Part shown: piece after piece, positions 1 through 28,723 of the stretch
Position numbering within the stretch: position 1 is the stretch's first letter
How the letters are laid out: the number at the start of each line of letters is the position of its first letter
Source of the DNA: Branchiostoma belcheri
Lineage: Eukaryota
Assembly (NCBI RefSeq): GCF_001625305.1
Contig: NW_017803490.1
Span: forward strand, 8,113,914-8,151,662
Length of the DNA: 37,749 bases
Reading direction: 5' to 3'
Notes under the pieces: generated by a model
Database searches by the model: none
What the model saw: only the letters and a program-made list of their open reading frames with translations
Told to the model about the DNA's origin: nothing
Position numbers and translations under genes: made by a program

Positions 1-437
1 AAAAAAAAAAAAGTGAATCCCTACCTACCGACCCTAATTTTTTTCTGGACTGTAATAGGAAACACAACATTTATTTTGTTAGGCCTTAGTTGTCACTTAT
101 AGCCTTAAAGCTTATAGCATTTAACTTAGCGTATAGAATTTTCTTCTCACACAACCAGTAAAGGTTCTCTGGTTGTGTAAGAAGAAAATTCTATACCCTA
201 AGTATCTTCCAACCTGATAAAATTATTTACGGAGCATTTAACATAGTGCTACATTAGACTTACCCACAAACTTGACCTTCTCCCTGCCTGTGTTTATGTC
301 CCACAGTTTGAGGGTGAAGTGTGGCTTCATTTATTAGTCTAGTAGGTATCATTACTGTAATTATATACATGCATAGTACTGTACAGTATTACATTTGTAC
401 ACTGTACTAAAAATAAGTTAAACATGATTATACTCAC

Positions 438-598
438 CCACAAACTTGACCTTCTCCCTGCCGGTGTTCATGTCCCACAGTTTGAGGGTGAAGTCGCCTG
501 ACGCAGTGACGACATAGTCTCCGGTCTCAGACCAGGCGCAGGAGGTGATCCAGTCCTGGTGGCACTCTGATATAACCCTGCTGGGCTGGGGGTCAGGG
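438..598 (-). CDS. TEP1: TEP1-like exon, WD40 repeat (GPDPQPSRVISECHQDWITSCAWSETGDYVVTASGDFTLKLWDMNTGREKVKFV)
   Basis: Minus ORF 418..606 contains a WD40 repeat. Acceptor tttgtttag|ccc at 599-600 and donor GTGG|GTGAGT at 437-436. Phase joins the upstream exon 1025..1141 to give codon GGC. Confidence 0.7.
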
Positions 599-744
599 CT
601 AAACAAACACAGGTGGGAGACCTTAGCATAGCAACATTACAGTTATGTGTTACTGGAAGATAGTCAGAAAATGTCCACTCTATGCATGATGTACAAAATG
701 ACTAATAAACTGGTGGACGTAACAACTTCTAGTATCCAATACTG

Positions 745-900
745 ACCAAGAAAAGAACTAGAAACAGTCATGCCTTCAAATATGAGAGTTATTCACCAAG
801 GATTGAGGTGTTCAAAAACTTATATTTTACAACAACTATTTTAGAGTGGAACTCGTTGCCACCAAGCACAGTTGGGGCATCATCACTAGAAAGCTTTAAG
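745..900. repeat. Interspersed repeat family R3 copy (core agagtggaactcgttgccaccaa)
   Basis: About 85% identical to 9270..9470 and 34370..34570; shared segments catgcctt(c/t)aaatat(g/c)agagtta and attgaggtgttcaaaaactt. Confidence 0.5.
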
Positions 901-1024
901 CAATTCCTGCAACTAAAGGTGTAAAGATTCGGTGACATAGAGCTGCCACCACGACACATATGCGTTCATGATCTGTTAAAAGTGCTAGTATCTACACAGA
1001 CTGTTAATATCAACCTTTACTTAC

Positions 1025-1141
1025 CCAGATTTGATGTCCCAGAGATGCAGAGTTTTGTCCCTGCTGCCTGTCACCACGGACCGCCGGTCTGGGCTGAAGG
1101 CACAGCAAGTCACAGGACCGCCGTGGCCGCGTAACACTGAC
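1025..1141 (-). CDS. TEP1: TEP1-like exon, WD40 repeat ([39 protein letters not shown])
   Basis: Clear WD40 peptide on the minus strand. Donor TGG|GTAAGT at 1024-1023; acceptor aaacccag| at 1142-1143. The reading frame does not join the upstream exon 2091..2316 (see finding). Confidence 0.6.
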
Positions 1142-1620
1142 CTGGGTTTTACCTCATATGGCATGGCCTGGGAACAACAACAACAGCAAAAAATACTGGT
1201 CAGTTTTTAAACTGGAATTTTGGTCCCATCACCACTGACCTACACTGACCTGGGCTTTACCTCGTACGGCATGGCCTGGGAACAACAACTTTAAAACACT
1301 GTGGTTAGATTTTAAACTAGAATTTTGGTCCTGTCACTACAGATCGAAGGTCTCCACTGGTCTTGTAACACCGATATGGCATGGCCTGGAAACAACAACG
1401 TTAAAATACTGGTCAGTTTTTAAACTGGAATTTTGGACCTGTCACCACTGACCTACACTGACCTGGGCTTTACCTCGAAAGGCTTGGCCTGGAAACAAGG
1501 GCAATAAGTGCTGATTAGTTTTTAAACTGGAATTTTGGTCCTGTCACTACAGATTGACGGTCTCCACTGGCCTCATTACAACAACCTGGGCTTTACCTCA
1601 TACGGCATGGCCTGGAAACA
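1141..1620. repeat. Tandem repeat, about 110-bp unit x5, intronic
   Basis: Units start near 1141, 1250, 1365, 1462 and 1585. Each unit carries cctgggctttacctc..ggcatggcctgg(g)aaacaa, a copy of the acceptor flank and first bases of exon 1025..1141. Confidence 0.7.
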
Positions 1621-2090
1621 ATGGCATTTAATAACGGTTAGCTGTAATCTCCAAGCAGATCTTTGCAAGACAGAAAGTGGCTGCAAGACAGTATCCAACC
1701 AGTTAAAGACAGTATCAAATTGGCAGGGCAGGGAAAAAAGAAATAGCATGCATGCAGACCATAAAAAACCTTATCACATTTAAGTCCCTTTATATGTGTT
1801 AGACTGAAGTATTGACTGCATGTAGTTCTGTCAGTTCAATCCAGTGAAAGAAGAGTGACGGATGTCACTTGGAATGTCCAATTTATCCAGCAGTAGTCTA
1901 GAGTTTGATTTGTCTTTGAATGATTACAGAAAGGTCCTTACAGATTTTTTGATGGTCTGTACAGTTGGGATTACAGAAAGGTTCTTACAGATTTCTTAAT
2001 TGCTGTTATTATGTGTATTTCTATTTGAATGTATGTTTTATATGGGCCATGGATGCCTAGAATAAAGAAAGAAGACAGAAAGGTCCTTAC

Positions 2091-26051: not shown

Positions 26052-26114
26052 CTGGAACGGAACAGAGTTTTTTAATGTTCGAAAATCTAACTGTTGCCTA
26101 AATGTGTTGTACTG

Positions 26115-26300
26115 GGGTCGTGTGAATTGTGGGGTTGTGTGGCGTAACGGCAGAGCATTCAGCTCAGAACAAAGAGGTCTCAGGTTTGAATCCTACCAAG
26201 TCACCTTGTGCCCTTAGGAAAGGCACTTTACACGACTTTCCCCACTTCACTCCTAAAGGTGAAAATAAGTATGCCATAACGATCATTGTGATGATTCAAT
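26115..26300 (+). mobile_element. tRNA-derived SINE, plus orientation, with (attca)n 3' tail
   Basis: Head ggggttgtgtggcgtaacgg...aggtttgaatcctacc, core ggaaaggcactttacacgactttcc, tail gattcaattcaattcaattcaattcag. It directly abuts the LINE 3' end. Confidence 0.55.
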
Positions 26301-27230
26301 TCAATTCAATTCAATTCAGTCTTTATTAAACAACTCGCAGACTTAAGTCTGAATTGTGTTGCTCATTACAATATTCGGGAAACGTTAATAAGATTACAGA
26401 CAATCATCTTAAGTAAAATGCGCTTTCGTTTACAAATATAATACATTACATAACATTACAAATTAAAATATATCATAAAACACAGAAGAGAAGACGTCTG
26501 TGCCGCTGTGTCACTCAGTGTATAAGGTACTGCAGACACGACAGATAAGTGAAGTCTGAGCGCAAGTACTATATTCATTACTTGGCATTTAACAGTTCAA
26601 CTAAAAAAGGAATTGGTGAGTTCTTGTGACGTGCAGACCGACAGAGTGGAACATCAAATTTATTAGCATTACGTGTACTTCTACCGGAAATGATCTGTCT
26701 CAGCAGGGGCAACCAATCACGGAACTCAGAGTTCAGCAGGGATTCTGCAAATGCCCTACAAAGTTCGCGACGTCGGTCAGCAAGGGAGCTGAGGTTCAGG
26801 GTTGTCAGTGCCATATAATAGCTCGAATACTGTGATCCCAAGATGATTTTACAGGCCCTCGTCTGGATCCGTTCTAGAGTCTTAGATTGTTTAGTGGTCA
26901 AGGCCGGATGCCACACGGGCACTGTGTATTCCAGTAAAGGGCGCACGTACACGGTGTAGACAGACACCAGGTCAGGAACTGACACACCGAATCTTTTCAG
27001 CCTCCGTACCATGTAGAGTCTCCTATTTGAGGATTTCACCATACTGTCCACTTGCTGGTCCCATTTCAGATTGTTTTGAATCGTCAGGCCGAGAACCTTG
27101 ATGCATGTAACGGTTACCAGGGTCTGTTCACTGATGATCAGTGGTTCAGGTGGGGGAGGAACCTTAGCGAAACAGATCTGTAGCACTTTGCATTTCTTCG
27201 GGTTCAAAGCCATCACATGATCATGGGAAT
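26300..27230 (-). mobile_element. 5'-truncated LINE fragment (RT C-terminal thumb region plus 3' UTR)
   Basis: Minus ORF 26578..27216 (212 aa) has non-LTR RT C-terminal features (KCKVLQICFAK, LGLTIQNNLKWDQQVDSMVKSSNRRLYMVRRLKRFGVS); about 280 bp of 3' UTR ends in a (tgaat)n tail. Confidence 0.7.
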
Positions 27231-27382
27231 TAAAGGAAAAACCAACGTCTCTGTTACGACAAGTGTGAGATTACTTTTTTCAGTGAGTTATATACTGGAT
27301 CGAGATCACACATCCTTTCCTCATTTCTTTACCAGAATGAAACTCAAAAAGATGTACAAAAAAAAACATGTAATCATCAAAC

Positions 27383-27517
27383 CTTTAAGATGAACTCTGG
27401 GTCGAAGTTGACCAGCTGCTCTGCCAGTGCTGACAGCCTGACCCTGGTGGCGTCATGTTCCTCCCGCAGGTTGGGAGACTGGATCAGGGAACCACTCACA
27501 GCGTTGATCAGGGTTTG
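27383..27517 (-). CDS. TEP1: TEP1-like exon, start of TROVE (QTLINAVSGSLIQSPNLREEHDATRVRLSALAEQLVNFDPEFILK)
   Basis: Minus ORF 27377..27562; matches human LAAIFEICRELALLEPEFILK. Acceptor ttaatctccag| and donor AAG|GTTTGA. Confidence 0.7.
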
Positions 27518-27829
27518 CTGGAGATTAAAGTTAAAATTATACCAAAATGTTAGGAAACTCAAACAGGATACAGGTCTGTGTAGCCTGGTTACCAGAGCTA
27601 TTATAGCTCCCGAGTCCTACATCGTCTCTGCTATTTATGCTAATGTAAAAAACTTGCAATGCATAGTATACTGTCTGATTCATGTATGTAAGATGATCAA
27701 CATCATAGATGTAGAGAGCTACAGTTAATTTGATATGGTTGTAAACTTCCATTCTTGACTTAGGCCTATAGTCTATTCATCTGCAATAACCATGATATAA
27801 CAATGGTTCTGCTAGAACTCTAGTAGTAC

Positions 27830-28723
27830 CTTTAGAGCAGGTAGGTTTGTTGTTGGCAGCTGCTGACAGATAGAAGAGTCCAGCTCAGGTGGCAGGAAGG
27901 CTGGCTGTTCTATCATCTCCATGGCAACATCAAGCCTGATGTCATACTCGGGTTTCATCGTCTCAGCCTCGAGCATGACCTTCCTCTCTCCGTGGGTCAC
28001 CTTGACCCCTGGGTCATGCTTGTTCTTTTTTGTCGACCTGTGCTTTTTCTTTGTTGTTTTGGCATGATCGGCTGTTTTGCGCTGTTTTATTTGCAGCTGT
28101 GAATTTTCTGATAACTGCCTTTCAGCATAATGCACCCTCAGCGATTCTATTGGCTGCGAGAGATCAGCTGACTTGGGCAAGAGTTGCAAGGCACCCTGGG
28201 AATGAAGAACCTGATGACTGTGGAGTGAGGAACTCTGGGATAGCTGCAACGGCTTGCCTGTTTGCAGCAGAGGATTGTGGGATGTTTGGAAACCATGTTT
28301 CGAGCCGGCAGCACTTGAGTTGAGAATATTGTTGACTGTCGTCCCAGTCAAAGGTTTGCTCTGGACCAAGGCAGGATTTTGTAGTGATGGTGACTTCTTT
28401 GGTTTGATTTTTTCCTTGTCAAATGTCTCAACATTGCTCTGCAACCTTTCCATTTTGGGCTTCTTTGTCTCAATTTTGTTGGAGCCAACTAAAAGCCTGT
28501 TGGTGGTGAGGTCACTGCGCAACTCTGCCGATGATTTGGGCTTGCTTTTATCCAAATTGTGGGAAACTTTCCCCAGAAGAGGGTTTGGAAACTTCGTTGT
28601 CAGACCGAGAAGTGGGTTGACTTTAGTTTGGGACTCCAGGTTTGTCTTTTGATTGACAGCTGATGACAGCAAGGGATTGTGGGTAGGGAAAACCATGGTG
28701 GTTGCTCCCTTGGTGAGCGGCAT
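27830..28723 (-). CDS. TEP1: TEP1-like first coding exon, N-terminal low-complexity region with repeated xNPLL motifs (MPLTKGATTMVFPTHNPLLSS...VNPLLGL...PNPLLGK...HNPLLQT...)
   Basis: Minus ORF 27812..28723. ATG at 28721-28723 is the first in-frame ATG, 4 codons after an upstream in-frame TAA. Donor AAG|GTACTA at 27829-27828; the next exon follows in phase 0. Analogous to the TEP1_N repeats of vertebrate TEP1. Confidence 0.65.

Follow-up and report, generated by a model that had tools for sequence, protein, structure and literature searches.

Gene structure of the TEP1 locus

The stretch of Branchiostoma belcheri DNA analysed here (contig NW_017803490.1, positions 8,113,914 to 8,151,662; 37,749 nucleotides, referred to as the window) is of eukaryotic type, with fragmented open reading frames and a GC content of 38-46%. 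It harbors the 5' part (an estimated 86%) of one intact protein-coding gene on the minus strand, very probably the orthologue of TEP1 (telomerase protein component 1) with the build of a STAND-type switch. Gene structure, domain order, orthology and the conserved catalytic and nucleotide-binding residues were shown here. As a member of a known family, the gene is an orthologue of the kind to be expected, and the annotation of the sister species B. floridae already contains it as separate pieces.

In the splice-aware model, a coding sequence of 6604 nt (2201 codons, no stops) is distributed over 32 exons, all flanked by GT-AG introns, beginning with the ATG at 28723 and closing with a donor after 438 that is still open. 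Canonical dinucleotides occupy each of the 62 splice sites read in the window. For the exon chain, the AG and GT sites near every conserved block were listed, sites common to B. belcheri and B. floridae at the aligned position were rewarded and an open frame was required; the donor of exon 30 was set by hand to 2091. Exon 1 is supplied by a 303-codon open reading frame starting at the ATG at 28723 on the minus strand, a position matching the homologous start in B. floridae.

The first-pass annotation of the window had likewise arrived at 32 exons, and the motifs quoted there were all located on the minus strand: a 15-residue motif (16415-16459), ESPFNNQ (11689-11709), KLPFMAMLRNL (22474-22506), RAGKRMKL (23543-23566), LPSDWIEVAEIYQ (25890-25928), AITMAMNDQ (20114-20140) and SRQFPFRF (22366-22389, plus two copies in pseudo-exons). 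Since the donor after 438 is still open, the gene extends beyond position 1 and its 3' end lies outside the window, as had been noted before. Its earlier description as complete has to be withdrawn, because approximately 345 codons of the WD40 part (about 14% of the coding sequence) are estimated to be missing; this value is based on the third B. floridae gene model, 1340 residues long and beginning near exon 18, and on the match to the Pfam family Beta-prop_TEP1_2nd, which has come no further than profile position 173 of 255 where the window ends. Of the window, 76% belongs to the locus, rather than about half. The parts of the gene, in window positions, are:

27830-28723 (-): exon 1, residues 1-298; start codon, low-complexity tail with four NPLL motifs, TROVE start; donor conserved
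27517-27383, 26051-25890, 25389-25255, 24623-24448, 23627-23470, 22514-22314, 20941-20764, 20246-20066 (-): exons 2-9, TROVE, residues 293-713; Pfam TROVE, tblastn to B. floridae P0013 and P0039, conserved splice sites
20820-20918 (-): linker rich in RG/RGG in exon 8, residues 629-661; in frame and kept in B. floridae
20114-20140 (-): MNDQM at the position of the metal ion-dependent adhesion site (MIDAS), exon 9; alignment
19463-19311, 18830-18756, 18300-18089, 17469-17333 (-): exons 10-13, vWA-like (DUF5920), residues ~714-935; Pfam, AlphaFold, MIDAS alignment
16515-16371, 15957-15752, 15100-14776 (-): exons 14-16, TeTIR/DUF4062 NADase domain, residues 945-1158; phmmer to PDB 11gz_A, Pfam
15929-15921 (-): codons of the RWG loop
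15080-15078 (-): codon of the catalytic Glu1057
14319-14179, 13677-13472, 12433-12295, 11899-11689 (-): exons 17-20, NACHT NTPase, residues ~1208-1376; Pfam NACHT, AAA_16 and nSTAND1, motif alignment
13637-13635 (-): codon of Walker A Lys1219
12332-12330 (-): codon of Walker B Asp1308
10857-10765, 10389-10138, 9684-9530, 9141-8973, 8600-8223 (-): exons 21-25, winged helix (HTH_NWD1), APAF1_C-like helical domain and WD40 start; Pfam, blocks conserved with B. floridae
7899-7606, 7003-6715, 3495-3386, 2912-2749, 2316-2091, 1167-1025, 598-438 (-): exons 26-32, WD40 beta-propellers, residues 1724-2201; Pfam, open donor after 438

Domain architecture

An N-terminal tail is followed by TROVE, a vWA domain (DUF5920), the TeTIR/DUF4062 domain, NACHT, a winged-helix and APAF1-like helical region and WD40 propellers of the TEP1 type. 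The earlier assignment to a TROVE-DUF4062-NACHT-WD40 protein was thus borne out by the Pfam profile search, in which all four domains and, in addition, TEP1-specific propellers were found. TROVE was matched over profile positions 15-442 of 442 (E 3.8e-107), DUF5920 at residues ~741-926 (E 5e-17), DUF4062 at residues 949-1061 (E 2.6e-16) and NACHT with E 1.7e-10, the last region also matching AAA_16 and nSTAND1. Downstream of these, HTH_NWD1 (E 2.7e-7), APAF1_C (E 5e-9) and nine WD40 repeats (E 1.3e-74) were detected. Beta-prop_TEP1_2nd scored 189 bits (E 8.9e-56) against a cut-off of 89, and Beta-prop_TEP1_C 63 bits against 32.

In a protein-database search with the concatenated exon peptides, the best matches, from many animals, were all 'telomerase protein component 1'. 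The closest proteins were P0013 (TROVE, 87% identity) and P0039 (DUF5920 and DUF4062, 84% identity) of B. floridae, and the best solved structure was human TEP1's TeTIR domain (11gz_A, E 1.2e-64, phmmer against the PDB).

Within TROVE, a linker of ~33 residues is rich in RG/RGG; the B. floridae copy is in frame with a length difference of 15 nt. Such linkers are also present in some other invertebrate TEP1s, while the vertebrate linker at this place is basic and non-RGG. In searches of the PDB, the linker drew spurious matches to the tails of ribosomal protein S10.

NADase and NTPase residues

The structure 11gz_A aligns to residues 945-1158 with a constant offset of +49 through the motif residues and without internal shifts. 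Human TEP1 hydrolyses NAD+ through its DUF4062/TeTIR domain, for which F902, S905, R914, R942, C959, R976 and E1008 are required, with R908 and W943 contributing (bioRxiv 10.64898/2026.09.21.753143; 10.64898/2026.05.01.722283); a third 2026 preprint agrees on NAD+ hydrolysis and names the domain NIR. All nine positions are conserved in the amphioxus protein: F951, S954, R957, R963, R991, W992, C1008, R1025 and E1057 correspond to human F902, S905, R908, R914, R942, W943, C959, R976 and E1008, respectively. From this complete conservation of residues defined by mutagenesis, amphioxus TEP1 is predicted to be an NAD+ hydrolase. Walker A (GKSGSGKT, residues 1213-1220, with K1219) and Walker B (VVIFMDGLD, residues 1303-1311, with D1308) are intact and aligned with those of 12 homologues, in line with the first-pass annotation; Walker B includes the stretch IFMDGLDQ.

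vWA fold and MIDAS site

An AlphaFold model of residues 680-911, computed with 16 homologues, showed alternating strands and helices (predicted local distance difference test 74, predicted template modelling score 0.73). The best PDB matches of this predicted vWA fold were Ro60 structures (1yvp, 2i91, 2nvo, 9nen), followed by the vWA domains of TFIIH, MDN1, RGLG2, CMG2 and Rpn10. Ro60 has a metal-binding MIDAS motif. In amphioxus TEP1, alignment and model place MNDQM, not DxSxS, in the loop after predicted strand 1. The degenerate MIDAS reported in the first-pass annotation is therefore present, but as no peculiarity of the amphioxus gene: in the alignment, the motif is equally degenerate in turtle, shark, hagfish and most invertebrate TEP1s, and only a tunicate sequence keeps DVSAAM. 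By this alignment, MIDAS loss is a family-wide trait of TEP1.

Comparison with the B. floridae locus

The orthologous B. floridae region (L001; CM022888.1, GCA_000003815.2) was compared with the window by blastn. Approximately 30 co-linear blocks of 75-96% identity were found, separated by unalignable introns. Across the 30 exons covered by B. floridae, nearly every acceptor and donor lies at the aligned position, the exceptions flanking introns 25 and 26.

In the B. floridae annotation, the region is divided into three adjacent models on the same strand, with 656, 505 and 1340 residues (3414-9978, 10001-16575 and 16908 to the end of L001). A B. floridae coding sequence rebuilt with the common splice sites runs in one open frame from the start codon across the RGG exon; the first split, located at this exon, is therefore an annotation artefact. 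The frame is broken only where 1 bp is inserted close to the end of exon 16 (L001 ~15864-15872; 326 vs 325 nt), a change that may reflect a real frameshift or a mistake in the assembly. Deletion of one base there results in 2034 open codons with 86.8% identity to the window protein. By domain, identity to the frame-corrected sequence is 93.8% for TROVE, 87.6% for vWA, 87.7% for TeTIR, 84.8% for NACHT and 89.5% for WD40. The uninterrupted amphioxus TEP1 provides a reference for correcting the three-way split in B. floridae.

Exons 25, 26 and 27 (378, 294 and 289 nt) form a single 961-nt exon in B. floridae, and introns 25 (8222-7900) and 26 (7605-7004) are hence specific to one lineage. Both are phase 0, located at GGAAG^GT between codons 1739/1740 and 1837/1838, respectively, and both begin with gtttgtttgttt. 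They may have been gained in the lineage of the window or lost as a pair in B. floridae. In the Lingula model, considered as outgroup for these introns, an unrelated gene comes next.

Exon-end fragments in the introns

Self-comparison of the window revealed eleven local direct duplications inside the TEP1 gene, at exons 6, 7, 9, 13 (both ends), 15, 18, 19, 30, 31 and 32. The copies (pseudo-exons) are located as follows:

253-320: beside exon 32
1134-1626: beside exon 31
1918-1971: beside exon 30
12513-12787: beside exon 19
13067-13153: beside exon 18
15503-15635: beside exon 15
16842-17099 and 17613-17689: two copies beside exon 13
19759-19971: beside exon 9
21908-22223: beside exon 7
23332-23414: beside exon 6

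Of the local repeats, just one lies entirely in an intron, a minisatellite of intron 16 (ten copies of 21 bp, 93% matches, 14337-14547). Exon-intron junctions are spanned at 10 or 11 of 12 loci, compared to 3.1 of 12 expected (P ~1e-5) when segments of the same lengths are placed randomly with wholly exonic positions disallowed. The copies are 72-98% identical to their parents, and the splice dinucleotides are kept in all of them. Each fragment maps to one place in B. floridae, the locus of which has about one case of its own, at the end of exon 6. When B. floridae serves as outgroup, 112 derived differences are common to parent and copy, each of which has 34 private changes, from which it follows that the duplications are younger than the species split.

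For exon 15, the private changes of the parent are synonymous by eye, while those of the copy alter residues, including GERYG to GEQCG, by which the arginine equivalent to human R976 is lost. The third copy of exon 7 contains two stop codons. The cases at exon 7 and at the 3' end of exon 13 are true tandem arrays. In the copies of exons 6, 15, 18, 30 and 32, the end of the exon is followed by an intact GT and by no more than 7-24 bp of intron; re-insertion took place 40-298 bp downstream, with non-homologous spacers in between. A 70-nt copy of the end of exon 6, at 23416-23347, has ttgttccttag directly before it.

An assembly artefact by concatenation of haplotypes was largely rejected, as most copies are only 72-91% identical to their parents, some arrays comprise three to five copies, stop codons or the loss of the catalytic arginine occur, and no long word is shared at the junctions. 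For two 97%-identical pairs only, such an artefact is plausible. A literature search yielded no relevant report of junction-spanning duplications in amphioxus. The junction-associated pattern is unexplained and is the sole unexpected feature of the window. Tentatively, and with a rather low probability, a mutational or selective process in the amphioxus lineage might preferentially make or keep short exon-end copies with their splice site (50-320 bp, GT or AG intact). It is a similarly speculative possibility that the same process leaves decoy splice sites, possibly poison exons, in ten or more introns of this single gene, within a few hundred bases of the parents. Should this hold genome-wide, the turnover of splice sites, changes of introns and alternative splicing would have a source that has not been described before.

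Other intron contents and flanking genes

Intron 27, with a length of 3.2 kb in the window vs 0.43 kb in B. floridae, harbors a nested open reading frame of 244-255 codons encoding RING and B-box domains (TRIM2/3-like; 4391-5565, minus strand), which is absent from the B. floridae intron and is followed by a second one of 143 codons in another frame, with an overlap of 19 nt. The 25 relatives of the RING and B-box frame, all 'TRIM2/3-like' proteins of Branchiostoma with at most 69% identity, form a Branchiostoma-specific expansion; the copy in the window may be a live gene or a retrocopy. It was also considered as a TEP1 exon and rejected, because the orthologous intron of B. floridae lacks it and the TRIM-like proteins related to it stand alone. 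In intron 2, a 230-codon open frame (26581-27270, minus strand) gave no Pfam match; it has the look of the segment that lies just downstream of the reverse-transcriptase domain in non-LTR (long terminal repeat) retrotransposons.

A dispersed repeat of ~70-150 bp, present in both orientations with 88-95% identity, was found in introns 26 (7094-7247), 4 (25093-25244), 10 (19120-19217) and 21 (10670-10712) and upstream of TEP1 (32660-32732); it may be an element similar to miniature inverted-repeat transposable elements. Long (AC)n and (TG)n microsatellites are located at 20428-20759 and 31874-32141.

Approximately 600-830 bp 5' of the TEP1 ATG, a 240-bp block (29321-29557) with no obvious coding frame is 73% identical to L001 1235-1479 and may be an exon of the 5' untranslated region or a promoter element. 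Further upstream, the terminal exon of a divergent gene for a membrane receptor of the PAQR/HlyIII type was detected at 32991-33434 (plus strand), matching positions 87-221 of the 224 in the Pfam profile HlyIII with E 6e-13. The C-terminal globular domain of fibrinogen is encoded in full by a 295-codon open frame at 35165-36049 (minus strand; Pfam, E 3e-55), which indicates a fibrinogen-related gene upstream of TEP1. Scans of the window for Rfam families, including vault RNA, and for tRNAs gave no hit.

Assessment of alternative interpretations

The division of the B. floridae record into three neighbouring models would be expected if the locus comprised two or three genes that separately encode TROVE, vWA-DUF4062 and NACHT-WD40 proteins. 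This is very improbable, since the window frame is open over both split points, the B. floridae frame is itself open at the first of them and restored throughout by removal of one base, and TROVE to NACHT are found in a single protein in other animals (P0001, P0005, P0007). Even less likely, to the point of being negligible, is a paralogue of the NWD1/NWD2 type. Such proteins have the TeTIR-NACHT-WD40 core in common with TEP1, and the winged-helix segment of the window protein matches a Pfam family named HTH_NWD1, but the TROVE and vWA extension, which separates TEP1 from NWD1/2 (bioRxiv 10.64898/2026.09.21.753143), is present here, and TEP1-specific propeller families match. An NWD1 or NWD2 protein, or another NACHT-WD protein lacking TROVE, had been named in the first-pass annotation as the competing best match; none of the top 120 matches in the protein database was an NWD1 or NWD2 protein. 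A decaying or unexpressed TEP1 pseudogene, the introns of which fill up with exon fragments and insertions, might be suggested by the eleven pseudo-exons, the nested TRIM-like frame and the retroelement-like frame. It is highly unlikely as well, given 2201 codons free of stops, 62 of 62 canonical splice sites, the retention of all catalytic residues and the opposite behaviour of spliced exon 15, with private substitutions that are synonymous by eye, and of the copies, with altered residues or stops.

Several points weigh against the interpretation as an intact TEP1 orthologue. Repeats of the TEP1_N family (PF05386) were not found in two Pfam searches of the amphioxus protein, even at E 0.1. 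They are visible in deer TEP1 (P0017) and in neither amphioxus sequence, both of which carry in their place a low-complexity N-terminal tail (~290 residues) with four NPLL motifs. Their absence from both suggests that TEP1_N is a vertebrate addition and does not define the family. The BLAST comparison with TEP1 and NWD1 proposed earlier gave TEP1, and not NWD1 or NWD2, as best match, but reciprocal orthology was judged from TEP1 fragments, Pfam, the PDB and the B. floridae locus, as the proteins returned from the database have at most ~1400 residues and include no full-length vertebrate TEP1. The 32-exon model is derived from genomic sequence, and the final coding part (the estimated 345 codons), the stop codon and the full WD40 array lie outside the window. 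The pseudo-exons with intact splice sites in several introns could disturb TEP1 splicing. Finally, NADase activity, RNA binding, residence in vaults and activation by oligomerisation are carried over from work on human TEP1 and would apply to amphioxus by analogy.

Putative function and comparison with known systems

For decades, TEP1 was an enigmatic component of vaults and telomerase. The vertebrate protein also goes by the name of vault protein p240. Mammalian TEP1 is a resident of vault particles and binds telomerase RNA as well as vault RNA. By analogy, the TROVE domain and the vWA module without metal site, with their Ro60-like build, would bind small structured RNAs. Nucleotide binding by the NACHT ATPase, acting with the winged-helix and helical domains, may control oligomerisation. 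The WD40 propellers might sense a signal and keep the ATPase in check, a role proposed for them in the cited 2026 preprint, and the TeTIR domain would hydrolyse NAD+. Three 2026 preprints show the DUF4062 domain of TEP1 to be a TIR-like NADase with bacterial anti-phage effectors as relatives. The intact cephalochordate TEP1 with all catalytic residues supports the view that the combination of RNA-binding, NADase and STAND parts is older than vertebrates.

Compared to human and other vertebrate TEP1s, the amphioxus protein has the same domain order, identical core motifs, the NADase-critical and Walker residues and an equally degenerate MIDAS. It differs in the N-terminal tail with NPLL motifs instead of TEP1_N repeats and in the RG/RGG-rich linker within TROVE; 32 exons encoding 2201 residues lie in the window, the 3' end outside. 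With B. floridae, the orthologous locus has co-linear exons, splice sites, the RGG linker and the NPLL motifs in common, while the latter species differs in its three annotated genes and the 1-bp frameshift in exon 16 and lacks introns 25 and 26, the TRIM-like frame and almost all pseudo-exon fragments. The TROVE module and the predicted vWA fold resemble Ro60, which has no NADase, NACHT or WD40 parts; the MIDAS position is occupied by MNDQM in amphioxus. Bacterial defence proteins, namely DUF4062/NIR-bearing STAND proteins (Avs-type) and Swarozyc, likewise couple a TIR-like NADase effector of the DUF4062 kind to an oligomerising sensor, and prokaryotic DUF4062-NACHT-WD40 proteins were among the database matches with ~40% identity. 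The prokaryotic DUF4062 proteins are devoid of TROVE and vWA, and the role in abortive infection is theirs and not one shown for animal TEP1.

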